Shown here one piece after another: positions 40,298-53,408 of a stretch of DNA of 64,000 nt (the stretch's first letter is position 1; each line of letters opens with the position of its first letter). A program made the position numbers and the translations under genes. The DNA is from an uncultured Gemmatimonadales bacterium (GTDB lineage Bacteria > Gemmatimonadota > Gemmatimonadetes > Longimicrobiales > RSA9): assembly GCA_963816355.1 (NCBI GenBank), contig CAWFKH010000004.1:366625-430624 (forward strand). Reading direction: 5' to 3'. A model generated the notes under the pieces. That model was not told where the DNA came from. It saw nothing but the letters and a program-made list of their open reading frames with translations, and made no database searches.

Positions 40298-41503
40298 TCA
40301 ACCGGTTCTCCGCGCCCTCCGACGCTCCGTGCCTTCCGTGACGAGCCGTTCCTCCGTGCTCTCCGCGCTCTCGCGCCGGACCTCGCTCCGCTGCTCGGCC
40401 CGCTCCGACGCCTCGCTCCGCGTCCTCGTCCGGACGGCGCGCGCCACGCGTTCGGCGTCGCGGCCCACGCCGTGGATCATGCCGGAGGACAGCGCGTGCA
40501 GGAAGTGGAGGCCGACGAAGAAGAGGCCGGGCCGGGCGTCGACGATGCCGCTGCGGTGGTCCGGATCGCCGTCGCGGAAGACGGGCAGGTCGATCCAGTC
40601 GAAGCCGGGTCGGAAGCCGGTGCACCACACGATGTTGGCGACGTCGAGCGCGCGTCCGTCCTCGAGCAGGGGCCGGCCGTCGCGCGCCCCGCCGGTGCGC
40701 GGCACGCGGCGCACGCCGGAACGGACGAGGTCCCGCTTCTTCACGCGGATCAGGGGGCCGCCCTTGTGGAGGATGGAGGGGCGCGCCTTGCGACCCAGCG
40801 GCGTTTTGACGGTGAGGACGCGATGGAAGAGGCCGCGCAGCACGAGCCGGACGAGGATGAGCCGCCCCGCGACGCCCTCGACGCGGAACGGGATCTCGCC
40901 GGTGTCGCGGCCGGACATCCAGACGTCGTGGAGCGGCGCCAGCTCGGTCGCGATCTCGGAGCCGGAGTTGCCGGCGCCGACGATCAGGACGGGCCCTTCG
41001 CGGAGCTGGCGCGGATTGCGGTAGTCGATCGAGTGGATCTGGACGATCGAGGGATCCAGCTCCGCGGCGAACGCGGGCACGTGCGGCTTCTGGAAGTCGG
41101 CCATGGCGACGACGACGTTCCCGGCCTCGATGCGGCGGCCGCCGGCGTCGACGACGAACGCGCCGCCGTCGTGCGTCAGCCGATCGACGCGCACGCCGGT
41201 GCGCACCGGCAGGTCGAAGCGCGCGGCGTACGCCTCGAGGTAGTCGGCCATCTCGTCCTTCGTGGCGAAATGGTGCGGCCGCGCGGGGAACGGCATGCCG
41301 TCCAGGCCGCTGAAGCGCGCGGGCGTGAAGAGCCGCAGCGAGTCCCACCGCTCCCGCCACACGTCGCCCACCCGCTCCCTGGCCTCGAGGATCACGAAGC
41401 GCACGCCCAGGCGGGAAAGATGGTAGCCGACCGAGAGGCCGGCCTGCCCGCCGCCGATCACCACCGCGTCGAATCGCTCCGCTCCCCGTACGCCGCTCGC
41501 CAT
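40298..41503 (-). CDS. Flavin-containing monooxygenase-like FAD/NAD(P)H oxidoreductase (CzcO-like)
   Basis: VIGGGQAG, WDSLRLFTP, HSIDYRNP, VGAGNSG, WCTGF; AAGGAGG RBS. Confidence 0.88.
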   Translation of the reverse strand: MASGVRGAERFDAVVIGGGQAGLSVGYHLSRLGVRFVILEARERVGDVWRERWDSLRLFTPARFSGLDGMPFPARPHHFATKDEMADYLEAYAARFDLPVRTGVRVDRLTHDGGAFVVDAGGRRIEAGNVVVAMADFQKPHVPAFAAELDPSIVQIHSIDYRNPRQLREGPVLIVGAGNSGSEIATELAPLHDVWMSGRDTGEIPFRVEGVAGRLILVRLVLRGLFHRVLTVKTPLGRKARPSILHKGGPLIRVKKRDLVRSGVRRVPRTGGARDGRPLLEDGRALDVANIVWCTGFRPGFDWIDLPVFRDGDPDHRSGIVDARPGLFFVGLHFLHALSSGMIHGVGRDAERVARAVRTRTRSEASERAEQRSEVRRESAESTEERLVTEGTERRRARRTG

Positions 41504-41623
41504 GTCCAGCCTCCTTCGCGTTCCGGTCTCCGCATCCTCCGAGGTCCGCCCGGCCGGGGCGCTGCGCCCTCGGCCCCTTCCGTACCTCAAAGATGCACGC
41601 TGCCCGCGCTCCCCGCTTCGGGC

Positions 41624-41664
41624 GAATCAACCAAATCCGCGGCGAGGCGCGGCGTGGGTGATTC
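41624..41664. promoter_or_regulatory. Candidate LuxR-family operator GAATCAACCA-N21-TGGGTGATTC
   Basis: 10-bp inverted repeat (1 mismatch) between the LuxR stop and the monooxygenase start. Confidence 0.5.
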
Positions 41665-43322
41665 TATGCAGGCGGGTGCTGGAGGTCGTGCTCGTAGGCG
41701 AACGCGGTGGCGGCGGCGCGCGAGGAGAGCCCGAGCTTGCCGAAGATGTTGGCGACGTGGCGGGCGACGGTCTTCTCGCTGATCGAGAGCACATCGGCGA
41801 TCGCGCGGTTCGTCTTCCCGGTCGCGACGAGCGCCAGCACCTCGCGCTCGCGCGGGGTCAGGCCGTGGCGGTCGCGACGCGGAGCGCGGCCGAGCGCCGC
41901 GTCGAGACGCGCGAGGTCGGGCGCGGCGCCGAGGCGCTCGAACGCCGCGCGCGCCGCTTCGACCTCGAGCGCGGCGCCGTCGTCGTCGCCCAGCTCGCGG
42001 CAGGCGCGGGCGATGAGCGAGCGCACGCGCGCGACGTCGTGCCGCGCGTCGAGCGCCTCCCACTCCCGGCACGCGCGGCGCAGCGGGGCGAGCGCGCCGG
42101 CCGCATCGCCCGCCGCCAGCGCGATCGCACCGGTCGCCTGCGCGACGACGGCGTCGAGCACGGCGCTCGCGCAGGAACGCGCCACGTCCGCCAGCTCCGC
42201 GCGCGCACGGCGTGCCTCCTCGACGTCGCCGACGGCGAGCATGATCTCGACGTGGGCGGGGAGCAGCCGCACGCGCTTCAGGCGCTCGGTCGTCTCCGCG
42301 AGCGCGCGGCGGCTGGCGGCCGCGGCCGCGTCGTCGTCGCCCTGCGCCAGCCGCAGCAGCGCGAGCCCGGGCTGCGGCTCGTGGCCCGCTCGGCTCGCGG
42401 CGCGGTACGCCTCCTCGGCGGCCGCGAGCTCGCCGCGCAGCCGGTGCACCTCGGCCTGGAGGTAGAGGGCGATGCCGACGGCGCGCGGATCGGCGGCGAC
42501 AGCGAGACGCTCCGCGGCGCGCTCCGCCTCCTCCAGGGCACCACTCCATTCGCCGCGAAGACGCAGGATCTCCGCGCGGTAGACGCGGCACTCGCCGGTG
42601 TAGGCGACCATGTCCGGCCGCCGCTCGCACCACTCGCTCAGGGCGGCCGTCCACTCGTGCGCCCGTCCGAAGGCCCACACCTCGCGGCACGCGCTGATCA
42701 CGCTGCAGTAGACGAGGCCGGTGACCTGCGGCGACAACTCGTCCGACATCACGCCGACCATCGCCTCGTCCAGCAACGCGAGACCCGCGCTCACGTTACC
42801 CTGGCGCAACAACGCGCGCCCGTGCAGGTGCAGCGCGAGCGCGACCAGCTCGCGCTCGCCGAAGCGCTGGCCGATCGCGGCCGCTTCCGCGGCCAGCCGC
42901 GACGCCGCCTCGGTGTCGCCCGCCGCCAGCTGCTGCTGCCCCTCCGGCAACAACAGATAGCCGCGTTCCGCACACTCCCCCGCCTCACCTTCAAGCACCC
43001 GCGCCGCGCGGCCGAACCAGCCGCTCGCCTGCGCCATCTCCCCCCGCACCGCCAGGTGCAGCCCCAGCCAGAACGCGCACCGCGCCGCCGCCACCGCCTC
43101 ACCCGCATCGAGTCGCGCCTGATGGCACTGCTGCGCCGCCCGCACGAACTCCCCTTCGCGGCCGATCAGGTACGACGCGAGCGCCAGACGCCAGAAGTCC
43201 TCCGGCTCGAGCGACGCGGCCGCGCGCTCGCGCGCTTCCGCCAACGCCGCGTGCGCGCGCGCCCAGGCCCGGCCCTCGAACGCCTCGCGACCTTGCTGCA
43301 ACACGGACCGGATCGAATCCAT
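41664..43322 (-). CDS. LuxR-family regulator with helical (MalT-like TPR) N-terminal region
   Basis: C-terminal GLTPREREVLALVATGKTNRAIADVLSISEKTVARHVANIFGKLG. Confidence 0.9.
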   Translation of the reverse strand: MDSIRSVLQQGREAFEGRAWARAHAALAEARERAAASLEPEDFWRLALASYLIGREGEFVRAAQQCHQARLDAGEAVAAARCAFWLGLHLAVRGEMAQASGWFGRAARVLEGEAGECAERGYLLLPEGQQQLAAGDTEAASRLAAEAAAIGQRFGERELVALALHLHGRALLRQGNVSAGLALLDEAMVGVMSDELSPQVTGLVYCSVISACREVWAFGRAHEWTAALSEWCERRPDMVAYTGECRVYRAEILRLRGEWSGALEEAERAAERLAVAADPRAVGIALYLQAEVHRLRGELAAAEEAYRAASRAGHEPQPGLALLRLAQGDDDAAAAASRRALAETTERLKRVRLLPAHVEIMLAVGDVEEARRARAELADVARSCASAVLDAVVAQATGAIALAAGDAAGALAPLRRACREWEALDARHDVARVRSLIARACRELGDDDGAALEVEAARAAFERLGAAPDLARLDAALGRAPRRDRHGLTPREREVLALVATGKTNRAIADVLSISEKTVARHVANIFGKLGLSSRAAATAFAYEHDLQHPPA

Positions 43323-43415
43323 CGGGGCTCCGGCGGAGGAGGGATCGGAGTATGGACGATACGGGGGCGGCGAGGGGCGGAGCAACCTGGGGCCGGGGGA
43401 GGAGGGGGCGGAGGG

Positions 43416-43514
43416 CGGAGGGAGGAGGGGGCGGAGGATCGGAGGGAGGAGGGGGCGGAGGATCGGAGGGAGGAGGCGGCGGAGGATCGGAGGGAGGAGG
43501 GGCGGAGGATCGGA
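43416..43514 (+). repeat. 24-bp purine-rich tandem repeat, about 4 copies
   Basis: CGGAGGGAGGAGGGGGCGGAGGAT units, followed by a REP-like arm at 43525-43560. Confidence 0.85.
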
Positions 43515-43875
43515 GAGACTACTGGTCACGGAGGGAACGGAGGGTCGGAGGGCACGGAGGGATCCATTGCGCTCCTCGGTGTTCTGCGTGGGTCCAACCG
43601 GCGCGGGGAACGTCAACGCGCTCCCTCGCCGGACCCATCCGGCCGTGGGGCACGCTGGACCGCGCGCAGAGCGGTCCACTCCGCCCCTCGCCCGAAGCCG
43701 CACCCGCGCGGGGCCATTGCGACCGCGTCTCGGGCGGTCCGATCTGCCCCGGATCGGAAATGGCGGCGGGCGGGGGTGAGTTGACGGCGATTGCGGACGG
43801 CGCGGAGCGGCCGGCGATCTCCTTGCGTTCGCCGGCGCACCCGGAGCAACTTGCGTCCTCCCTGCAAGGAGGCGA

Positions 43876-44445
43876 ATGAGTACGCGACTCCCCGTGCGGC
43901 TGAGGGTCAACGGCGTCGAGCGCGAAGCGACGGTCGAGCCCCGCCTGCTCCTGAGTGACTTCCTGCGCGTCGAGCTGGGTCTGACCGGCACCCACGTCGG
44001 CTGCGAACACGGCGTCTGTGGCGCGTGCACGGTCCTGCTCGATGGCGAGGCGGTTCGCTCGTGCCTTCTGTTCGCGGTGCAGGCGGCGGGACACGACGTC
44101 GCGACCGTCGAGGGGCTCGCGCCCGGCGGTGAGGCGGCGCTGCACCCGCTCCAGGCGGCGTTCCGCGAGGCGCACGCGCTCCAGTGCGGCTTCTGCACGC
44201 CCGGCATCCTCATGACGGTCCTGCCGTTCCTGCGCGAGAACCCCGATCCGACGCCGGCCGAGATCCGCGCCGCGCTCTCCGGCAACCTCTGCCGCTGCAC
44301 CGGCTACAACAACATCGTCGAGGCGGTGGCGCTCGCCGCGCGTACGGCGCGAGGCGAGGAAGCCGCGCCCGCCGCGGATGCGTCCGCCGCGGATGCGTCC
44401 GCCGGCAGCGCGAGCGCGTGGCCGAACGCGGCGGGCGCCGCGTGA
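43876..44445 (+). CDS. Molybdenum hydroxylase small subunit (2x[2Fe-2S], CoxS-like)
   Basis: GCEHGVCGACTV…SC and QCGFC…CRCTGY; AAGGAGG RBS. Confidence 0.93.
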   Translation: MSTRLPVRLRVNGVEREATVEPRLLLSDFLRVELGLTGTHVGCEHGVCGACTVLLDGEAVRSCLLFAVQAAGHDVATVEGLAPGGEAALHPLQAAFREAHALQCGFCTPGILMTVLPFLRENPDPTPAEIRAALSGNLCRCTGYNNIVEAVALAARTARGEEAAPAADASAADASAGSASAWPNAAGAA

Positions 44446-46850
44446 GCGAGCGCTACTTCGGCCGTCGCGTCCTGCGCAACGAGGACCCGCGGCTGCTGAC
44501 GGGCGGCGCGCTCTTCGTGGACGACGTGCGGCTGCCCGGCATGCTGCACGTCGCCTTCGTGCGGAGCACGCATGCGCACGCGCGCCTCCGCGGCATCGAC
44601 ACGGCCGCCGCCGCGCGCCGGCCGGGCGTCGTGGGGGTCTTCGCGGCCGGGGACCTGGGCGACTTCTGCAGGCCGGGCCCGCTGCTCGTGCACCCGCCGC
44701 CGGTCGCGGACCACGTCTTCCACGCGCGCACCCAGACGCCGCTCGCGCACGGCAAGGTGCGGCACGTCGGCGAGGCGATCGCGATGGTGGTGGCGGAGAG
44801 CCGCTACCTGGCGGAGGACGCGGCGGAGGACGTCCACGTCGACTACGAGCCGCTGGCCGCGGTGGTCGACATCGAGCGCGCGCTGGAGCCGGGGACGCCC
44901 CTCGTCCACGAGGACCTCGCGTCGAACCTCGCGGCGCACGTGCGGCAGACGAAGGGGGACTACGACGCCGCGCGCGCGGAGGCGGACGTCGTCATCGCGC
45001 GTCGCCTGCGCTACGACCGCGGCTGTTCGGCGGCGATCGAGAACCGCGCCGTCGTCGCCCAGTGGGACGCGAGCCAGCGGGAGCTGACGGTGTGGGACAC
45101 GACGCAGGCGCCGATCCCGATCCGCAACGGCCTCGCCCGCATGCTCGCTCTGTCGGAGTCGGAGGTGCGCGTCGTCGCGCCGTTCGTGGGCGGCGGCTTC
45201 GGTCCGAAGATCATGATGTTCTACCCGGAGGAGCAGCTGGTGCCGTGGCTCGCGCTGCGCCTGGGGCGGCCGGTGAAGTGGGCGGAGGACCGCTCGGAGA
45301 ATTTCTTCGCGACGACGCAGGAGCGGGGGCAGACGCACGACGCCGAGATCGCGCTGGCGAGCGACGGCCGGATCCTGGGCGTGCGCGACCGTTTCCTCCA
45401 CGACACCGGCGCCTACGACCCGTACGGCCTCACCGTCCCGATCAACAGCCAGTGCACGCTTCTGGGGCCGTACGAGGTGCCCAGCTACGACAGCGAGTTC
45501 CGCGTCGTCTTCACGAACAAGACGCTCGTCACGCCGGTGCGCGGCGCCGGCCGCCAGCACGGCGTGTTCGTCATGGAGCGGCTGCTCGACCTCGCGGCGC
45601 GCGAGCTGGCGCTCGACCCCCTCGAGATCCGCCGCCGCAACTTCCTGCCGCCGGCCGCGTTCCCCGTCGACCACGGCATCCTCTACCAGGACAGCGCGCC
45701 GCTCTACTACGACAGCGGCGACTACGAGCCGGCGCTCGCGCGCGCGGCCGAGATGATCGACTACGACGGCTTCGTGAAGGAGGAGCGGCCGCGGGCGCGC
45801 GCCGCCGGCCGCCACGTCGGCGTCGGCGTCGTCTCCTACATCGAGGGGACGGGCATCGGGCCGTACGAGGGCGCGCGCGTGCGGGTGGAGAGCGACGGCC
45901 GCGTCTCCGTGACGACGGGCGTCGGGACGCAGGGGCAGGGGCACTTCACCAGTTTCGCGCAGATCGTCGCCGACCAGGTGGGCGTGCGCGTCGAGGACGT
46001 GCGCGTCGTCACGGGCGACACGCGCGCGTTCGACTGGGGGACGGGCACCTTCGCCAGCCGCGGCGCGGTCGTGGCCGGCAACGCGTGCCACGCCGCGGCG
46101 ATCGCGGTGCGCGAGAAGATCCTCCGGCTGGCGTCGCAGGTGCTCGAAGCGGCCCCGGAGGACCTCGAACTGGCGCACGGGCGCGTGGCCGTGCGGGGCG
46201 CGCCGGCGCGCTCGCTCGAGCTCGCCGAGCTCGCCGTGCGCGCCAACCCGCTGCGCGGCGCGGTGACGCCCGGCACCGAGCCGGGGCTCGAGGCGACCGC
46301 CTACTTCGGCCCGGCGCGCGGCGCGACCGCGAGCGGCGTGCACGCGATGATCGTCGAGGTCGACGCGGAGACCGCGACGCTCGCGATCCGCCGCTACGTG
46401 GTGGTGCACGACTGCGGCCGCGTCATCAACCCGATGATCGTCGAGGGTCAGATCCACGGCGGCGTCGCGCACGGCATCGGCAACGCGTTCTACGAGCAGC
46501 TCGTCTACGACGACAACGGCCAGCTCCTCACCGCCTCGTTCATGGACTACCTGCTGCCGACTTCGCTCGACGTGCCGCCGATCGAGACGGCGCACATCGA
46601 GACCCCCTCGCCGCTCAACCCGCTGGGCACGAAGGGCGTCGGCGAGGCGGGCGCGATCCCGGTCGGCGCACTGTTCGCGCAGGCGATCGAGGACGCGCTC
46701 GCCATCGACGGGCTCGAGATCCTCGAAATGCCGCTCTCGCCCGGCCGCCTCTTCGAGCTGATCCGCGAGGCGCGCCGGCGCGGCGAGGCGGCGACGTCGC
46801 TCGAAGCGGACGGCGCGGCCGCGCCCGACGCGGCGCCGACGCCGCCGTGA
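44442..46850 (+). CDS. Molybdenum hydroxylase large (molybdopterin) subunit, xanthine dehydrogenase family
   Basis: RNEDPRLLTG, VGGGFGPK, PVRGAGR loop, GQGHFT, GTFASR, VEGQIHGG, KGVGEAG. Confidence 0.93.
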   Translation: MSERYFGRRVLRNEDPRLLTGGALFVDDVRLPGMLHVAFVRSTHAHARLRGIDTAAAARRPGVVGVFAAGDLGDFCRPGPLLVHPPPVADHVFHARTQTPLAHGKVRHVGEAIAMVVAESRYLAEDAAEDVHVDYEPLAAVVDIERALEPGTPLVHEDLASNLAAHVRQTKGDYDAARAEADVVIARRLRYDRGCSAAIENRAVVAQWDASQRELTVWDTTQAPIPIRNGLARMLALSESEVRVVAPFVGGGFGPKIMMFYPEEQLVPWLALRLGRPVKWAEDRSENFFATTQERGQTHDAEIALASDGRILGVRDRFLHDTGAYDPYGLTVPINSQCTLLGPYEVPSYDSEFRVVFTNKTLVTPVRGAGRQHGVFVMERLLDLAARELALDPLEIRRRNFLPPAAFPVDHGILYQDSAPLYYDSGDYEPALARAAEMIDYDGFVKEERPRARAAGRHVGVGVVSYIEGTGIGPYEGARVRVESDGRVSVTTGVGTQGQGHFTSFAQIVADQVGVRVEDVRVVTGDTRAFDWGTGTFASRGAVVAGNACHAAAIAVREKILRLASQVLEAAPEDLELAHGRVAVRGAPARSLELAELAVRANPLRGAVTPGTEPGLEATAYFGPARGATASGVHAMIVEVDAETATLAIRRYVVVHDCGRVINPMIVEGQIHGGVAHGIGNAFYEQLVYDDNGQLLTASFMDYLLPTSLDVPPIETAHIETPSPLNPLGTKGVGEAGAIPVGALFAQAIEDALAIDGLEILEMPLSPGRLFELIREARRRGEAATSLEADGAAAPDAAPTPP

Positions 46851-47749
46851 AGCCGCCGCCGTTCGAGTATTTCGCGCCCGCCACGCTCGAGGAGGCGCTG
46901 GCGCTGCTCGCCGAGCACGGCGACGACGCCCGTCCGCTCGCCGGCGGTCAGAGCCTCGTGCCGCTGATGAACTTCCGCCTCGCCCGGCCGGCGGTCCTGG
47001 TCGACCTCAACCGCGTCGCCGGCCTCGACGGCATCGAGGCCGCGGGCGAAGGTCTGCGGATCGGCGCGCTCGCGCGGCAGCGCGCCGCCGAGCGCAGCGA
47101 CCTCGTCGCCGAGCGCGCGCCGCTGCTCGCCGAGGCGCTGCCGCACGTCGCCCACCCGCAGATCCGCAACCGCGGCACCGTCGGCGGCAGCATCGCGCAC
47201 GCCGACCCCGCCGCGGAGCTGCCCGCCGTCGCGCTCGCGCTCGAGGCGACGCTGCGGCTGCGGAGCGCGGCGGCCGAGCGCGGCGTCGTCGCGCGCGACT
47301 TCTTCACCGGCCTCTTCGCCACCGCCCTCGAGCCGGGCGAGCTGCTGGTCGCCATGGAGGTGCCGGCACTGCCCGAAGGCGCCGGCTGCGCCTTCGACGA
47401 GGTCGCGCGCCGCCACGGCGATTACGCGCTCCTCGGCGTCGCGGCCGTCGTCGCGCTCGACGCCGCGGGCGCCTGCCAGCAGGCGCGCCTCGCCTACGTC
47501 AACGCCGGCCGCGGACCGCTGCGCGCGCCGCGAGCCGAAGCCGCGCTGGTGGGCGAGCGGCTGCGGCCCGCCGTCCTGCGCGCGGCGGCGGAGACCGCGG
47601 CCGGCGAGCTGCGTCCCGGCGCCGACGTGCACGCCTCCGCCGAGTACCGCCGCCACCTGGCGCGCGTGCTGACGGAGCGCGTTCTGGCGCGCGCCGTCGA
47701 GCGGGCGCGCGCCGTCGAGCGGGCGCGCGAGCCGGGAGCGCCGCGATGA
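46847..47749 (+). CDS. Molybdenum hydroxylase FAD subunit (CoxM-like)
   Basis: KPPPFEY, LAGGQSLVP, QIRNRGTVGGSIAHADPAAE, ASAEYRRHL. Confidence 0.93.
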   Translation: MKPPPFEYFAPATLEEALALLAEHGDDARPLAGGQSLVPLMNFRLARPAVLVDLNRVAGLDGIEAAGEGLRIGALARQRAAERSDLVAERAPLLAEALPHVAHPQIRNRGTVGGSIAHADPAAELPAVALALEATLRLRSAAAERGVVARDFFTGLFATALEPGELLVAMEVPALPEGAGCAFDEVARRHGDYALLGVAAVVALDAAGACQQARLAYVNAGRGPLRAPRAEAALVGERLRPAVLRAAAETAAGELRPGADVHASAEYRRHLARVLTERVLARAVERARAVERAREPGAPR

Positions 47750-49374
47750 AGCAAGGCCGCACCGCGCCCGGCCGGTCCGCCGCGAACGCGCCGGACGCCC
47801 CGCATTCCGGCGGCGCGCTGCATTCCGGCGGGGCCCCGCATTCCGGCAGCGCCCCGCATTCCGGCGGGGCGCTGAGCAACGCGGACCTCGCGCCGGTGCC
47901 GCCGGAGCGGCGCACGTGGGGGCTGTGGAACATCGCGTCGCTGTGGGTGGGGATGAGCGTATGCATCCCCACCTACATGCTCGCGGCGAGCATGATCGAC
48001 GCGGGCCTCTCGTGGTGGGAGAGCCTGCTCGCGATCCTGCTCGGCAACGCGATCGTGCTCGTGCCGCTCGTGCTGAACGCGCACGCCGGCACGCGCTACG
48101 GCATCCCGTTCCCCGTCTTCGCGCGCGCCTCCTTCGGCACCCGCGGCGCGCACGTCCCGTCGCTGCTGCGCTCGCTCGTCGCGTGCGGCTGGTTCGGCAT
48201 CCAGACGTGGATCGGCGGCCTCGCGATCCACGCGCTGCTCTCGATCGTGTGGCCGGCGTGGGCCGGCCTCGGCGGCGGCTGGCGGCTGATGGGGCAGTCG
48301 CTCCCGCTCTACCTCGGCTTCCTCGCCTTCTGGGCGATCAACATGTACTTCGTGTGGGCGGGGACCGAGTCGATCAAGTGGATGGAGACGCTCGCCGCGC
48401 CGTTCCTCATCGGCGGCGGCCTGCTGCTGCTCGCGTGGGCCGCCGCGCGCGTCGGCGGCTTCGGCCCGATGCTGCGCGGCTCCGAGCGGCTGGCGAGCCC
48501 CGCCCGCGGCGGCGCCGGCACGCTCCGCCTTTTCGTGCCGTGGCTCACCGCCATGGTCGGCTACTGGGCGACGCTCTCGCTCAACATCCCGGACTTCACC
48601 CGCTACGCGCGGAGCCAGAAGGACCAGGCCGTCGGCCAGGCGATCGGCCTCCTCACCACGATGCCGCTCTTCTCCTTCATCGGCGTCGCCGTCACGAGCG
48701 CGACCGTGCTCGTCTACGGCCAGGCGATCTGGAACCCGGTCGACCTGCTGGCCCGCCTCACGCGCGAGCGCGGCAGCCCCCTGCTCGGCGTGGCCGCGAT
48801 GCTCGTCCTGATCGTGGCGACGCTGAGCACCAACATCGCCGCCAACGTCGTCGCGCCCGCCAACAGCTTCTCCAACCTCGCGCCGCGCCGCATTTCCTTC
48901 CGCACCGGCGGCCTCGTGGCCGGCCTGATCGGCATCGCCATCCTGCCGTGGCGGCTGCTCGACATGTACCAGACGTGGCTGATCGGCTACTCCGGCCTGC
49001 TCGGCGCCGTGGGCGGCGTGCTGATCTGCGACTACGTCATCCTGCGCCGCGGCGCCCTCTCCGTCGACGACCTGTACGACGAGGCGGGCGCCTACGCCTA
49101 CCGCCGCGGCGTCAACCCGTCCGCCATGATCGCCCTCGCGGCGGGCATCGCCGTCGCGCTCGCGGGCCGCCTCGATCCGCGCCTCCGCTTCCTCTTCGAC
49201 GGCGCCTGGTTCTCCGCCGCGCTCGTTTCGCTCGCCATCTACTGGGCGCTCATGCGCGGCCGCATCGCCCGCGCCCCCGCGCCCGCCCGCGCCTCCGCTG
49301 CCGCTGGCGCCCCCGCTGCCGCCGGCGCGTCCGCTCCCGCGGCGGCGGCGCGCACCGCCGGCGGCGCGGCGTGA
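47746..49374 (+). CDS. NCS1 nucleobase:cation symporter
   Basis: LWVGMSVCIPTY, RYGIPFPVFARASFG, GWFGIQTW, WATLSLNIPDFTRY, NIAANVVAP; N-terminal 18-bp repeat x4 at 47797-47868. Confidence 0.93.
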   Translation: MKQGRTAPGRSAANAPDAPHSGGALHSGGAPHSGSAPHSGGALSNADLAPVPPERRTWGLWNIASLWVGMSVCIPTYMLAASMIDAGLSWWESLLAILLGNAIVLVPLVLNAHAGTRYGIPFPVFARASFGTRGAHVPSLLRSLVACGWFGIQTWIGGLAIHALLSIVWPAWAGLGGGWRLMGQSLPLYLGFLAFWAINMYFVWAGTESIKWMETLAAPFLIGGGLLLLAWAAARVGGFGPMLRGSERLASPARGGAGTLRLFVPWLTAMVGYWATLSLNIPDFTRYARSQKDQAVGQAIGLLTTMPLFSFIGVAVTSATVLVYGQAIWNPVDLLARLTRERGSPLLGVAAMLVLIVATLSTNIAANVVAPANSFSNLAPRRISFRTGGLVAGLIGIAILPWRLLDMYQTWLIGYSGLLGAVGGVLICDYVILRRGALSVDDLYDEAGAYAYRRGVNPSAMIALAAGIAVALAGRLDPRLRFLFDGAWFSAALVSLAIYWALMRGRIARAPAPARASAAAGAPAAAGASAPAAAARTAGGAA

Positions 49375-50924
49375 GCATCGACCTGATCGAGCGCGCCGCG
49401 CGTCACGGCGGCCGCGTCGCCCTGGCCGACGACGCTGGCGAGCACACCTACGACGACCTGCTCGCCGCGTCCGCCCGCGTCGCCGCGCTGCTCGCCGCGC
49501 ACGGCGGCGGCGCCGACCTCGGCGAGGCGCGCGTCGCGTTCATGGCGGAGCCGGGTCTCGACTACGTCGCCGCGCAGTGGGGAATCTGGCGCGCGGGCGG
49601 CGTCGCCGTCCCGCTCTGCGTCAGCCATCCGGCGCCCGAGCTGGAGTACGTGCTCGGCGACACCGGCGCCGCCACGGTCCTCGCCGGCGACGCTTTCGAG
49701 GCGCGCCTGCGCCCGCTCGCCGGCGCGCGCGGCGCCGCGCTGGTGAGGCTGCGCGACGCGCTGGCGGCGGGGGGCGACGTCGCCACGCTCCCCTCCATCG
49801 ATCCGGCGCGCCGCGCGATGATCCTCTACACGAGCGGCACGACGAGCCGGCCGAAGGGCGTCGTCAGCACGCACGCGAACCTGCGCGCTCAGATCGGGTG
49901 CCTGATCGAGGCGTGGGGCTGGAGCGCCGACGACCGCATCCTGCACGTGCTGCCGCTGCACCACACGCACGGCATCGTGAACGTGCTGCTCTGCGCGCTG
50001 CGCGCCGGCGCCGCGTGCGAGATGCAGCCCGGCTTCGACGCGGAGCGCGCGTGGCGCCGCCTCGCCGCGGGCGGTATCACGCTGTTCATGGCGGTGCCGA
50101 CGATCTACGTGAAGCTGATCGCGGCGTGGGAGGCGGCGGCGCCGGAGGCGCGCGCTCGCATGTCGGAGGCGTGCCGTCGTCTGCGGCTGATGGTGTCCGG
50201 CTCCGCCGCGCTGCCGGTCACGACGTTCGAGCGGTGGCGCGAGATCGCCGGCCACGCGCTGCTCGAGCGCTACGGCATGACGGAGATCGGCATGGCGCTC
50301 TCGAACCCGCTGGACGGCGAGCGCCGGCCCGGCACGGTCGGCCGGCCGCTGCCGAGCGTCGACGTGCGCCTGGTCGACGACGGCGGCCGCGTGGTGGAGG
50401 GCGAGGACGCCGGGGGCGAGATCCAGGTGCGCGGGCCGAGCGTCTTCCTCGAGTACTGGGGCCGGCCGGACGCGACGCGCGAGGCGTTCGTCGACGGCTG
50501 GTTCCGCACCGGCGACGTCGCGCTCCGCGAGCGCGGCTACTACCGCATCCTCGGGCGCAGCAGCGTCGACATCGTGAAGACCGGCGGCTACAAGGTCTCC
50601 GCGCTCGAGATCGAGGAAGTGCTGCGCGCGCACCCCGCCGTGCGCGACTGCGCGGTGGTGGGCGTGGAGGACCCGGAGTGGGGCGAGCGCGTGTGCGCCG
50701 CCGTGGTGCCGGTCGAGGGCGCGGAGGCCGACGCCGATCCCGACGCCCTGCGCGCGTGGGTGGAGGCGCGGCTCGCGCCGTACAAGGTGCCGCGGCGGTG
50801 GGCGCTGCTCGAGGCGCTGCCCCGCAACGTGATGGGCAAGGTGACCAAGCCGGCGGTCAGGGACGCGTTCGCAACGGAGCGGACCCGGCCGACACCCGCC
50901 GAACCCGCACCGGAGAACCGATGA
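49371..50924 (+). CDS. Acyl-CoA synthetase, malonyl/methylmalonyl-CoA synthetase (MatB/ACSF3) type
   Basis: YTSGTTSRPKG, LPLHHTHG, FMAVPTIY, SGSAAL, ERYGMTE, DIVKTGGYKVSALEIE, PRNVMGKV. Confidence 0.85.
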   Translation: MSIDLIERAARHGGRVALADDAGEHTYDDLLAASARVAALLAAHGGGADLGEARVAFMAEPGLDYVAAQWGIWRAGGVAVPLCVSHPAPELEYVLGDTGAATVLAGDAFEARLRPLAGARGAALVRLRDALAAGGDVATLPSIDPARRAMILYTSGTTSRPKGVVSTHANLRAQIGCLIEAWGWSADDRILHVLPLHHTHGIVNVLLCALRAGAACEMQPGFDAERAWRRLAAGGITLFMAVPTIYVKLIAAWEAAAPEARARMSEACRRLRLMVSGSAALPVTTFERWREIAGHALLERYGMTEIGMALSNPLDGERRPGTVGRPLPSVDVRLVDDGGRVVEGEDAGGEIQVRGPSVFLEYWGRPDATREAFVDGWFRTGDVALRERGYYRILGRSSVDIVKTGGYKVSALEIEEVLRAHPAVRDCAVVGVEDPEWGERVCAAVVPVEGAEADADPDALRAWVEARLAPYKVPRRWALLEALPRNVMGKVTKPAVRDAFATERTRPTPAEPAPENR

Positions 50925-51706
50925 AGCTCTACGACCTGTCGCAGCCGCTGAACCAGGAGTGCTCCTTCTGGCCCTACTACCCGCCGTTCGAGGTGAAGTA
51001 CATCAAGCGCAAGGCGGAGCACGGCGTGAACGCGCAGTACATCCAGACGTCCAACCACATGGGCACGCACCTGGACGCGCCGCGCCACTTCGTCACCAAC
51101 GGCATGACGATCGACGAGATCCCGCTCGAGTGGCTCTACGGCCCAGGCGTGATCGTCGACCTGCGCGCCGAGATGGACGACCTCGCCATCTATTCGCCGG
51201 AGATGATCGAGAGCCGCGTCGAGGTGCGGGACGGCGACATCGTGATCCTGCACACCGGCTGGGAGCGCTACGGCCAGTTCGGCGAGGAGGCCGACGAGGA
51301 GCGCTACATCCACCGCCACCCCGGGCCGCACCCGGACATGGTGCCGTGGCTGCTCGAGAAGAAGGTCCACATCTGGGGCCTCGACGCGATCTCGACCGAC
51401 CACCCGATGAACCTTCCGATCGGCCGCTTCCTCGGCAAAGGCATGCACGGCCACTGCGACCGCGTGCGCGCGCTGGCCGAGGAGAAGTTCGGCAAGGAGG
51501 GCGTCGCGAAGCTCTTCCCCGAGGAGGACTACCAGCTCACGCACAACGCGCTCTTCCCCCACGACTGCATCCACATCGAGAACCTCGGCGGCGAGATCGC
51601 GGCGCCGGAGCTGCAGAACCGGCGCCTGACCATCGGCTGCTTCCCGTGGAAGTTCAAGGGCGGCGAGGCCGCCTTCGCTCGCACCGTCGCGTTCGTCGAG
51701 GAGTAG
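50921..51706 (+). CDS. Cyclase-family (kynurenine formamidase-like) metal-dependent hydrolase
   Basis: YDLSQ, HMGTHLDAPRH, LHTGW, GLDAISTDH, IHIENL. Confidence 0.9.
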   Translation: MKLYDLSQPLNQECSFWPYYPPFEVKYIKRKAEHGVNAQYIQTSNHMGTHLDAPRHFVTNGMTIDEIPLEWLYGPGVIVDLRAEMDDLAIYSPEMIESRVEVRDGDIVILHTGWERYGQFGEEADEERYIHRHPGPHPDMVPWLLEKKVHIWGLDAISTDHPMNLPIGRFLGKGMHGHCDRVRALAEEKFGKEGVAKLFPEEDYQLTHNALFPHDCIHIENLGGEIAAPELQNRRLTIGCFPWKFKGGEAAFARTVAFVEE

Positions 51707-51758
51707 GCGCCGCGGGCCGCCTTCGCGCGCACCGTCGCGTTCGTCGAGGAGTAGGCGC
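51667..51758 (+). repeat. 48-bp-period duplication of the cyclase 3' end, including the stop codon
   Basis: GGCCGCCTTCGC(T/G)CGCACCGTCGCGTTCGTCGAGGAGTAGGCGC present twice, 1 mismatch. Confidence 0.9.
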
Positions 51759-51800
51759 GGCGCGCCAGGCGGCACGATCCGGAACCACGAAAGGAGCCGC

Positions 51801-53195
51801 ATGTCGGAAGAGATCGCCGGCCTCTCCGCCAGCGAGCTGCGCGCGCGCATCAGCCGCCGCGAGCTCGCCGCGGTGGACGTCGTCGAAGCGGCGCTGGCGG
51901 CGGTGGGTCGCTGGAACGAGCGCATCAACGCGGTCGTCACGCTGAACGAGCGTGCGCTCGACGACGCGCGCGCGCTGGACGCGCGGCGCGCCGCCGGCGA
52001 GGAGCCGGGCCCGCTCTTCGGCCTGCCCGTCGGCATCAAGGACGTCACCCCGGTCGCCGACCTGCGCACGACGTACGGCTCGCCGCTCTACCGCGACCAC
52101 GTCCCCGCCGAGGACGCGCTCGTCGTGCGCCGCGTGCGCGACGCGGGCGGGATCATCCTCGGCAAGACGAACACGCCGGAATTCGCCGCGGGCGGCAACA
52201 CGTTCAACGAGGTGTTCGGCCGCACGCGCAACCCCTGGGACCCGAGCCGCAGCGCCGGCGGCTCGACCGGCGGCGGCGCGGCCGCGCTGGCGACCGGCAT
52301 GATCGCGCTCGCGGAGGGGACCGACCTCGGCGGCTCACTGCGCATCCCCGCCTCCTTCTGCGGCGTCGTCGGGCTCCGCCCCTCGCCCGGCCTCGTCCCG
52401 ACCCACCCCTCCGACTACGTGTGGGACACGCTCCAGGTGACCGGCCCGATGGCGCGCCGAGCGGAGGACGTCGCGCTGATGCTGCAGGCCGTGTGCGGCC
52501 CCGATCCGCTCGCGCCGCTCGCGCAGCCCGTCGCCGGCCGCGACTTCGTCGGCGCCGTCCGCAACGGCATCCGGCCCGGCCTGCGGCTCGCCTACTGCGC
52601 CGACATCGCCGGCATCGGCGTCGACGCGGACGTCGAGCGCGTCTGCCGCGACGCCGCCTTCGCGCTGCGCGACGCCGGCGCCGCCGTCGAGGAGATCGAG
52701 CTCGACCTCTCCGAGGCGCGCGCGGCGTTCCTCGCGCTGCGCGGCTACTGGATGGTCGCGCAGCAGTACACGCGTCTCGACCGCACGGACGACTTCGGCG
52801 CCAACGTCGCCGGCAACGTGCGCGCCGGCCTCGCCACGACCACGCTCCAGTACGGCGAGGCGGAGCACGTGCGCGGCCGCCTCTGGCACCGCTTCCGCAC
52901 GCTGCTCTCCCGCTACGACCACCTGCTCACGCCGTGCATGGCCGTGCCACCCTTCCCCGTCGAGCGCAACTATCCGGAGAGCGTCGCCGGCCGCACGATG
53001 GAGACGTACGTCGACTGGCTCGCCCCCACCTTCGTGCTCAGCCTCACCGGCCTGCCCGTGGCGTCCGTCCCCGCCGGCCTGGATTCCTCCGGGCTGCCCG
53101 CGGGACTCCAGATCGTCGGCCGCCCGCAGGGCGAGGAGGCGGTCCTCGCCCTCGCCGCCGCCGTCCAGGCCGCCCGCCCGATCGGGGGGCCGTAG
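51801..53195 (+). CDS. Amidase signature family protein
   Basis: GLPVGIKD (Lys), GGSTGG, GTDLGGSLRIPASFCG (Ser-cisSer-Lys triad); AAGGAG RBS. Confidence 0.92.
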   Translation: MSEEIAGLSASELRARISRRELAAVDVVEAALAAVGRWNERINAVVTLNERALDDARALDARRAAGEEPGPLFGLPVGIKDVTPVADLRTTYGSPLYRDHVPAEDALVVRRVRDAGGIILGKTNTPEFAAGGNTFNEVFGRTRNPWDPSRSAGGSTGGGAAALATGMIALAEGTDLGGSLRIPASFCGVVGLRPSPGLVPTHPSDYVWDTLQVTGPMARRAEDVALMLQAVCGPDPLAPLAQPVAGRDFVGAVRNGIRPGLRLAYCADIAGIGVDADVERVCRDAAFALRDAGAAVEEIELDLSEARAAFLALRGYWMVAQQYTRLDRTDDFGANVAGNVRAGLATTTLQYGEAEHVRGRLWHRFRTLLSRYDHLLTPCMAVPPFPVERNYPESVAGRTMETYVDWLAPTFVLSLTGLPVASVPAGLDSSGLPAGLQIVGRPQGEEAVLALAAAVQAARPIGGP

Positions 53196-53203
53196 CCGGC
53201 CGA

Positions 53204-53408
53204 GGGCGCGGAGGAGGGCGCGGAGGAACGGCGGAGGACGCGGAGTAACGGCGGAGGGCGCGGAGTAACGGCGGAGGACGTGCGCGGAAGATGCGTCGCG
53301 CGCCGAGGCTCCCCGGCTCGGCCCGCTTCGACCGCCGTCGTTCTCCGTGATCTCCGACTCTTCGTGCTCTCCGTGACACGCTGTTCCTCCGCGCCCTCCT
53401 CCGCGCCC
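53204..53408. repeat. Perfect 26-bp inverted repeat enclosing a REP-like arm
   Basis: GGGCGCGGAGGAGGGCGCGGAGGAAC (53204-53229) and its complement (53383-53408); internal arm CTCCGTG…CTCCGTGAC at 53343-53377. Confidence 0.8.

Follow-up and report, generated by a model that had tools for sequence, protein, structure and literature searches.

A candidate barbiturase-independent operon for oxidative uracil and thymine catabolism in an uncultured Gemmatimonadales bacterium

The classical oxidative pathway and a related operon

Uracil and thymine can be catabolized oxidatively by a pathway that includes uracil/thymine dehydrogenase (Enzyme Commission (EC) number 1.17.99.4) and ureidomalonase (EC 3.5.1.95). 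As outlined in the sections of PMC3758960 cited here, the classical pathway converts uracil to barbiturate, barbiturate to ureidomalonate by barbiturase (EC 3.5.2.1), and ureidomalonate to malonate and urea. The same sections report homologues of AtzD and Bar in 3% of 6,423 genomes, and the pathway has been counted as rare because it was scored by barbiturase. Here we describe a seven-gene operon (43876..53195, + strand) in a window of 64,000 nucleotides, the whole stretch of DNA that was analysed and to which all positions refer, from an uncultured Gemmatimonadales bacterium (assembly GCA_963816355.1, contig CAWFKH010000004.1). Its best overall explanation, with a probability of roughly one half (0.52), is that it putatively encodes a barbiturase-independent oxidative route for uracil and thymine.

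The operon shares with classical clusters a related hydroxylase large subunit (48-51% identity), a pyrimidine-type permease, the activation of a diacid with coenzyme A (CoA) by MatB or CaiB, and an amidase whose best family is that of the gene following barbiturase. It includes a three-subunit molybdenum (Mo) hydroxylase related to the barbiturase-linked enzyme, whereas an AtzD-type barbiturase is absent from both locus and genome and a PF04199 hydrolase is present instead. The permease is of the NCS1 family rather than the RutG/UraA-like NCS2 type of classical clusters, and the operon lacks their PucR regulator, carbamate kinase and hydantoinase/oxoprolinase; the phyla also differ.

In the proposed pathway, the NCS1 protein likely imports uracil and thymine, which the Mo enzyme would hydroxylate at C6 to barbiturate and 5-methylbarbiturate (likely). 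A cyclase-family metal hydrolase likely replaces barbiturase and opens the ring to ureidomalonate, the amidase likely splits this into (methyl)malonate and urea, and a MatB-type ligase is predicted to convert (methyl)malonate to (methyl)malonyl-CoA. What is observed is the gene anatomy, the protein families, the catalytic motifs, the co-conservation, and the kinship of hydroxylase, permease and amidase with known pyrimidine pathway genes. From these, a uracil-type pyrimidine degraded to a malonyl skeleton appears probable as the substrate class, while the exact assignment of steps stands at even odds. An earlier note on this DNA had proposed oxidative pyrimidine catabolism ending in malonyl-CoA, which comparisons of the hydroxylase, the transporter and the ligase with related genes now support. 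It had further proposed two hydrolases non-orthologous to the classical ones: the ring-opener does look new, but the amidase does not, since its PRK07486 kin follows a true barbiturase in locus L140. The operon thus most likely represents a known pathway type with one new enzyme rather than two.

The seven open reading frames are intact, free of stops, and all on the + strand. The first six are chained by 4-nucleotide overlaps (GTGA/ATGA) at 44442, 46847, 47746, 49371 and 50921, and the amidase follows the cyclase after 94 nucleotides; the earlier note had given this arrangement correctly, and its protein family assignments agree with the Pfam results. A tandem repeat of the cyclase's final codons (period 48, 42/43 bases identical) takes up most of the 94-nucleotide gap, and because this duplication (51668..51758, + strand) of the gene's 3' end, with its stop codon, precedes the amidase, the latter is not overlap-coupled. 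None of the seven genes has a second copy at this identity in the genome (97.5% complete), and a promoter and terminator scan gave no signal above chance.

The cyclase and the conservation of its gene set

The predicted barbiturate ring-opener is a PF04199 "cyclase" metal amidohydrolase of 261 amino acids (50921..51706, + strand). It has the swivelling fold and metal motif of its family (HxG[T/A]HxDxPxH), the latter as HxGTHxDxPxH at residues 46-56, together with DHPMN at 160 and HIEN, with its KynB-like glutamate, at 218. An AlphaFold model matches isatin hydrolases and KynB (Foldseek E 1e-10, 14-21% identity), with a predicted local distance difference test score (pLDDT) of 75 that falls below 50 over residues 12-55, which cover the metal motif. 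The cyclase scores 61.5 bits against the KynB family TIGR03035 (cut-off 223), and where isatin hydrolases carry a GLQC/GLAS signature, as described in the cited part of PMC6117287, it has HIEN. Judging by the cited parts of PMC6117287 and PMC6214936, it shares the metal motif, the KynB-like IE(N) glutamate and the fold with the ring-openers isatin hydrolase, KynB, HpoH and PKC. For HpoH (Rhodococcus rhodochrous PY11) and PKC (pAO1), the latter source relates a proposed opening of an oxidised nitrogen ring before an amidase acts, an order of steps that the operon resembles; HpoH is known here by that description. The window cyclase differs from the solved PF04199 members in its low structural identity to them (17-21%) and in forming a tight subfamily of its own, in which full-length matches share at least 65% identity before a gap to 47% or less.

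A scan of GTDB with the cyclase yielded at least 238 relatives, of which the best 80 loci (79-88% identity to the window cyclase) were kept; all counts for cyclase loci refer to these 80, many of them short contigs, with genes called by a composition-based caller that missed some small ones. The phylum labels are Gemmatimonadota (49), Acidobacteriota (11), Bacteroidota (3) and five other phyla (1 each), with 12 loci, including KSB1, lacking a phylum; the cyclase spans at least seven phyla at this identity. The earlier note's proposed check on synteny conservation finds the set conserved: the large (L), small (S) and medium (M) hydroxylase subunits occur in 55/80, 50/80 and 60/80 loci, the amidase in 62/80, a MatB-type ligase in 36/80 and NCS1 in 27/80. 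NCS2 permeases (10/80), CoxG (26/80), CaiB CoA-transferase (8/80) and FdrA/AllG (2/80) also occur. Nine of the 80 loci hold the complete seven-gene set, and most long loci hold the S/L/M-cyclase-amidase core; among the 35 loci of at least 20 kb, L is present in 30, the amidase in 32 and either a ligase or a CoA-transferase in 27. The seven genes are one conserved operon, reshuffled across many uncultured bacteria, and their co-occurrence is above chance. No cyclase locus has both the ligase and the CaiB CoA-transferase, and this mutual exclusion suggests two alternative ways of activating one acid.

Within the window's own phylum the cyclase occurs in 28/251 genomes, and it is present in every one of the 17 genomes that have an NF040766-type L (E<=1e-200; an undercount, as three candidates were scored per genome). 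In a second phylum, Acidobacteriota, it occurs in 14/251 genomes, and eight of the 11 genomes with an L of at least 836 bits carry it. Among 81 neighbouring non-core proteins scanned with Pfam, which comprised most of a set of 123 and a few others, AllG and AllH were the only further pathway genes, and no description of this gene set was found in the literature searched, whose coverage stopped short of subscription journals and supplements.

The simplest reading is that the cyclase likely fills the slot of barbiturase, given their mutual exclusion at loci that otherwise share genes and the absence of barbiturase from the genomes. None of the 80 cyclase loci contains a barbiturase, and none of 80 metagenome loci with barbiturase (L086-L165) contains the cyclase, in line with the anti-correlation that the earlier note had proposed to look for. 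The two sets draw on the same genes in different proportions (barbiturase versus cyclase loci: CaiB 20 versus 8, FdrA 9 versus 2, amidase 6 versus 62, MatB 1 versus 36, CoxG 5 versus 26). AtzD-family barbiturase (PF09663) has no match in the source genome and none in the 251 plus 251 genomes of the two phyla, in searches that detected the positive control Embleya. At genome level the anti-correlation is uninformative, barbiturase being missing with or without the cyclase in both phyla, and therefore only the exclusion at locus level counts.

Two further groups of cyclase relatives were observed. Genomes with the same L clade hold a 557-amino-acid double-domain cyclase (L203:3794-5464 and L212:7219-8850; genomes G382 and G260), 36-39% identical per half to the window cyclase and 76% between the two genomes, that stands directly after FdrA-AllG in G382 and has no clean HxGTHxD motif; it could be another ring-opener or lack catalytic activity. 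Two haloarchaeal plasmid loci (L083 and L084; Natrinema and Halorussus) combine a 40-41% cyclase with S/L/M of a different clade, CoxG, XdhC, NCS2 permeases, an amidohydrolase and a CocE/NonD hydrolase, and one of them also has CaiB.

Hydroxylase, permease, amidase and ligase

The Mo hydroxylase consists of S (43876..44445, + strand; 189 amino acids, 2x[2Fe-2S], Pfam Fer2 and Fer2_2), L, the predicted uracil/thymine dehydrogenase large subunit (44442..46850, + strand; 802 amino acids), and M, which binds flavin adenine dinucleotide (46847..47749, + strand; 300 amino acids, Pfam FAD_binding_5 and CO_deh_flav_C). The best NCBIfam family of L is NF040766 (CODH_aero_grp5, "aerobic carbon-monoxide dehydrogenase large subunit"), at 926.7 bits just under the cut-off of 950, which some relatives of L exceed; yet the genomic contexts indicate nucleobase hydroxylation rather than CO oxidation. 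L has the motif VTPVRGAGR and the catalytic GEAG and lacks VAYRCSFR, which we take to be the motif of form I CO dehydrogenase, a family (TIGR02416) against which it scores 558 bits (cut-off 991).

Its two best matches in 1,104 plasmid-collection records, from Nonomuraea (50%) and Embleya (49%), come from the only two of 132 records with a barbiturase match of at least 60% (the query being the Embleya protein, Embleya itself is a self-hit). With 594 bits to 5HWE, presumably the Rhodococcus erythropolis barbiturase, and 324 bits to the top-scoring cyanuric acid hydrolase, the Embleya protein is a barbiturase. Its gene is 7.6 kb away from that of L, in a neighbourhood that also holds carbamate kinase, FdrA, AllG, a RutG-like permease and a nitrilase; in Nonomuraea the distance is about 30 kb. 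L is present in 12 of the 80 barbiturase loci, six times at 48-51% identity to the window L. In a quick IQ-TREE tree (41 rows, 16 chosen cyclase loci, few outgroups; sequences that were fragmentary or contained stops, L123 and L134 included, were dropped, and the trees contain no characterised Kdh, Ndh or PKC), the window clade (support 100) joins the 48-51% barbiturase-linked clade and one Serratia sequence (SH-aLRT, a Shimodaira-Hasegawa-like approximate likelihood ratio test, 94), and a Variovorax sequence joins at 98. The window L thus appears akin to the barbiturase-linked enzymes, a kinship short of proven orthology in a comparison made up of genomic sequences. A second Mo-hydroxylase type (32-33%, motif GTAYRGFGH), possibly a convergent uracil dehydrogenase, is barbiturase-linked in L109, L125, L130, L144, L154 and L155, five of which also hold FdrA/AllG.

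The permease (47746..49374, + strand; 542 amino acids) exceeds the NCS1 cut-off of TIGR00800 (373.5 versus 353.1 bits) and is predicted to import nucleobases, being related to permeases found in reductive uracil/thymine operons. It is 48-54% identical to NCS1 proteins in eight of 20 fetched dihydropyrimidinase loci of the same phylum, several of which look like full reductive operons, and 47-48% identical to permeases beside hydA (Leisingera) and between preA and hydA (Burkholderia). Its identity to the E. coli allantoin permease AllW is 32%, and it scores 294.6 bits against the allantoin permease family PRK11375 (cut-off 620). This assignment follows these identities, as the root of the NCS1 tree, set by one long outgroup, is unreliable. 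A CaiB CoA-transferase 49% identical to the cyclase-linked CaiB (L184:14306-15472) lies inside a reductive pyrimidine operon with NCS1, a nitrilase-family hydrolase, an aminotransferase, an aldehyde dehydrogenase and dihydropyrimidinase.

The amidase-signature hydrolase (51801..53195, + strand; 464 amino acids, Pfam Amidase), the predicted ureidomalonase, has an intact Lys-cisSer-Ser triad (K80, S155, S179) and is probably of a kind already used in the classical pathway, as judged from genomic neighbours of barbiturase. Its best NCBIfam family is PRK07486 (420.6 bits, below the cut-off of 465). In locus L140, a barbiturase identical at 366/368 residues to 5HWE lies between upp and an amidase-signature gene, with a uracil-type permease, CaiB and a carboxyltransferase close by; this amidase (L140:11287-12708), directly after barbiturase, also has PRK07486 as its best family (712.8 bits) and is 34% identical to the window amidase. 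The barbiturase-linked amidases of L108 and L122 pass PRK07486 as well, and window and barbiturase-adjacent amidases group at 99 in a sparse tree with only eight other amidases, a weak test. The gene L140:11287-12708 is itself a candidate ureidomalonase gene. The window amidase reads GGSLRIP and not the GGSVIRP of malonamidase E2, where the arginine three residues past the nucleophile presumably has a functional role, and it matches E2 weakly (115 bits); the L205 amidase does have an arginine at that spacing. Across the barbiturase loci, carbamate kinase (47/80), hydantoinase/oxoprolinase (23), carboxyltransferase (17) and FdrA (9) are adjacent, which hints that Actinomycetota-type clusters may cleave ureidomalonate by phosphorolysis with a gain of ATP.

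The ligase (49371..50924, + strand; 517 amino acids, AMP-binding Pfam) is a predicted (methyl)malonyl-CoA synthetase of the MatB/ACSF3 type. It and 28 cluster homologues examined share the motif ERYGMTE (residues 299-305 in the window ligase), described for malonyl-CoA synthetases in the cited parts of PMC12476969 and PMC7232532. The likeness to MatB/ACSF3 extends to its top PDB matches, at least four of them, led by the malonyl-CoA ligases 3NYQ (299 bits) and 4FUQ (276), with oxalate-CoA ligase at 204. It differs in scoring 391.1 bits against PRK07514, below the cut-off of 558, and in being linked to a heterocycle operon and not to a malonate transporter. A malonyl product is independently supported by locus L205, whose L is 69% identical to the window L: there, FdrA and AllG accompany a second MatB lineage (40% to the window ligase, 488 bits on PRK07514) and an amidase whose top eight PDB matches are all malonamidase E2; the amidase-FdrA-AllG arrangement recurs in L203 and L213. 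MatB also lies directly 3' of barbiturase in L151. The genome has methylmalonyl-CoA mutase, a route for the thymine-derived product, and a search for malonyl-CoA decarboxylase, run without a positive control, came back blank. CaiB was rejected as a link between cyclase and barbiturase loci: their copies are 38-46% alike, no closer than an unrelated genome copy (41%).

Taken more broadly, the odds lean slightly towards an undescribed, barbiturase-independent oxidative uracil/thymine route in at least seven phyla. PF04199 would then supply a second, unrelated barbiturase, and uracil/thymine dehydrogenases would make up both the "group 5 CO dehydrogenase" family and the clade sister to it. The lower pathway would be modular, with a PRK07486 amidase serving as ureidomalonase or, alternatively, AllFGH-type phosphorolysis yielding carbamoyl phosphate together with a malonamidase, followed by MatB or the CaiB CoA-transferase. 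If the cyclase does perform the barbiturase step, the route also exists in the 28/251 and 14/251 genomes of two phyla in which barbiturase was not found, an 80%-conserved PF04199 subfamily currently annotated "kynurenine formamidase" gains a new reaction, and a candidate ureidomalonase family can be named. It matters here that the closest database family of the oxidising enzyme bears a carbon monoxide dehydrogenase label, as this Mo-enzyme family would then be likely to cause CO oxidation to be called falsely in metagenomes.

Competing explanations and neighbouring features

Several observations weigh against a uracil/thymine operon. The window cyclase has no match in three of the 11 Acidobacteriota genomes that carry a close L. 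The haloarchaeal cyclases (40-41%) occur together with a distantly related L (33%) and with a permease that exceeds the xanthine-permease (PbuX) cut-off; given this pairing with a different hydroxylase and permease, the subfamily of the cyclase is not bound to a single substrate. NCS2 permeases over the PbuX cut-off are likewise present in some loci (L003, L203). On the hydroxylase side, an unrelated type (32-33% to the window L) accounts for the other six of the 12 L subunits found in barbiturase loci, the L group of the window includes or adjoins Serratia (45%) and Variovorax (46%) enzymes that have no pyrimidine context, and the window clade is about 50% identical to the barbiturase-linked clade, with differing pocket-region motifs (GPKIMMFYPE versus GVKIVHPWPE). 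Neither urease nor urea carboxylase was found over cut-off in the 97.5% complete genome, and released urea would therefore be unused; as sister loci moreover use AllF/AllG and a malonamidase-like enzyme instead, the earlier note's scheme of exactly two hydrolyses with release of urea is only tentative. Searches of the genome turned up neither dihydropyrimidinase nor RutA over cut-off, and no uricase, but exclusion of the reductive pathway is weak across the phylum: dihydropyrimidinase occurs in 1/28 genomes with versus 54/223 without the cyclase when a threshold of 428 bits is set post hoc (p 0.013), and in 3/28 versus 54/223 at the curated cut-off (p 0.15; within family f4, p 0.45), with at most six candidates scored per genome and the unpublished genomes G155 and G180 included. 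This anti-correlation was rejected, as it is not significant once kinship is allowed for.

It is unlikely that the operon serves to degrade a different ring, be it a pyrimidine that is modified or partly hydroxylated (2- or 4-hydroxypyrimidine, a 5-substituted uracil, cytosine) or a compound of the pyridine/glutarimide type, and that the cyclase works in the manner of HpoH/PKC. Among solved structures, L is indeed closest to quinoline 2-oxidoreductase (529 bits) and Kdh (500 bits), and a Rhodococcus cyclase of 34% identity that keeps DHPMN adjoins a Rieske dioxygenase and a nitrilase. The alternative CaiB has succinate-glutarate CoA-transferase as its best match, but so does the barbiturase-linked CaiB; moreover, the malonate-type ligase and malonamidase-like amidase indicate a three-carbon diacid and not a C5 one, and the NCS1 protein resembles reductive-uracil permeases. 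Quite unlikely, too, is the same uracil/thymine pathway with nitrogen released as ammonia rather than urea, whether the cyclase cuts next to C2 to give N-carboxymalonamide and then malonamide plus CO2, or the amidase strips the terminal ureido nitrogen and then works as a malonamidase. The missing urease and urea carboxylase would suit this scheme, and the malonamidase-E2-like amidase of AllF/AllG sister loci makes malonamate a plausible intermediate in the family; however, AllF/AllG beside the cyclase (L009, L015) requires a ureide product, and neither the GGSLRIP motif nor the weak E2 match of the window amidase favours a malonamidase.

A purine-derived route, from xanthine or urate to oxalurate, oxamate and oxalyl-CoA, is very unlikely. 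AllF/AllG homologues do occur in L009, L015, L203 and L205, and the E. coli substrate of AllF/AllG is oxalurate according to the cited part of PMC11326118; true barbiturase is, however, also accompanied by AllF/AllG and carbamate kinase. The PbuX-level NCS2 genes of L003 and L203 would fit such a route, but the ligase is MatB-like and not an oxalate-CoA ligase, and uricase is missing. Furthermore, L scores 241-431 bits against xanthine dehydrogenase large-subunit families (cut-offs 780-916) and lacks the pocket motifs of that enzyme, as judged by the residue roles that we assume for them. Least of all would we expect the NF040766 label to be right in making S/L/M a form II-like CO dehydrogenase, with incidental neighbours. 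The RGAGR motif and the CoxG genes of 26 loci are compatible with that label, yet full NF040766 members (Embleya, 1541.6 bits; Nonomuraea, 1363.3) sit in barbiturase clusters, S/L/M is tightly linked to hydrolases and permeases, and the genome has a separate CoxMSL with VAYRCSFR elsewhere (G000:C4:173860-177576), near XdhC and MoxR-type genes. That XdhC could also mature the Mo enzyme of the window.

CoxG is absent from the operon and, in a search with the Embleya CoxG as query, from the genome. Upstream and divergent lie a LuxR-type regulator and a flavin monooxygenase-like gene (41664-43352 and 40298-41590, both - strand), which are probably unrelated, as they are not recurring neighbours in related loci. 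Short degenerate repeats at 43380-43520, 47790-47870 and 53196-53290 flank the operon and pad the NCS1 N-terminus, and low-complexity runs of a similar kind are present in other genes of the window.

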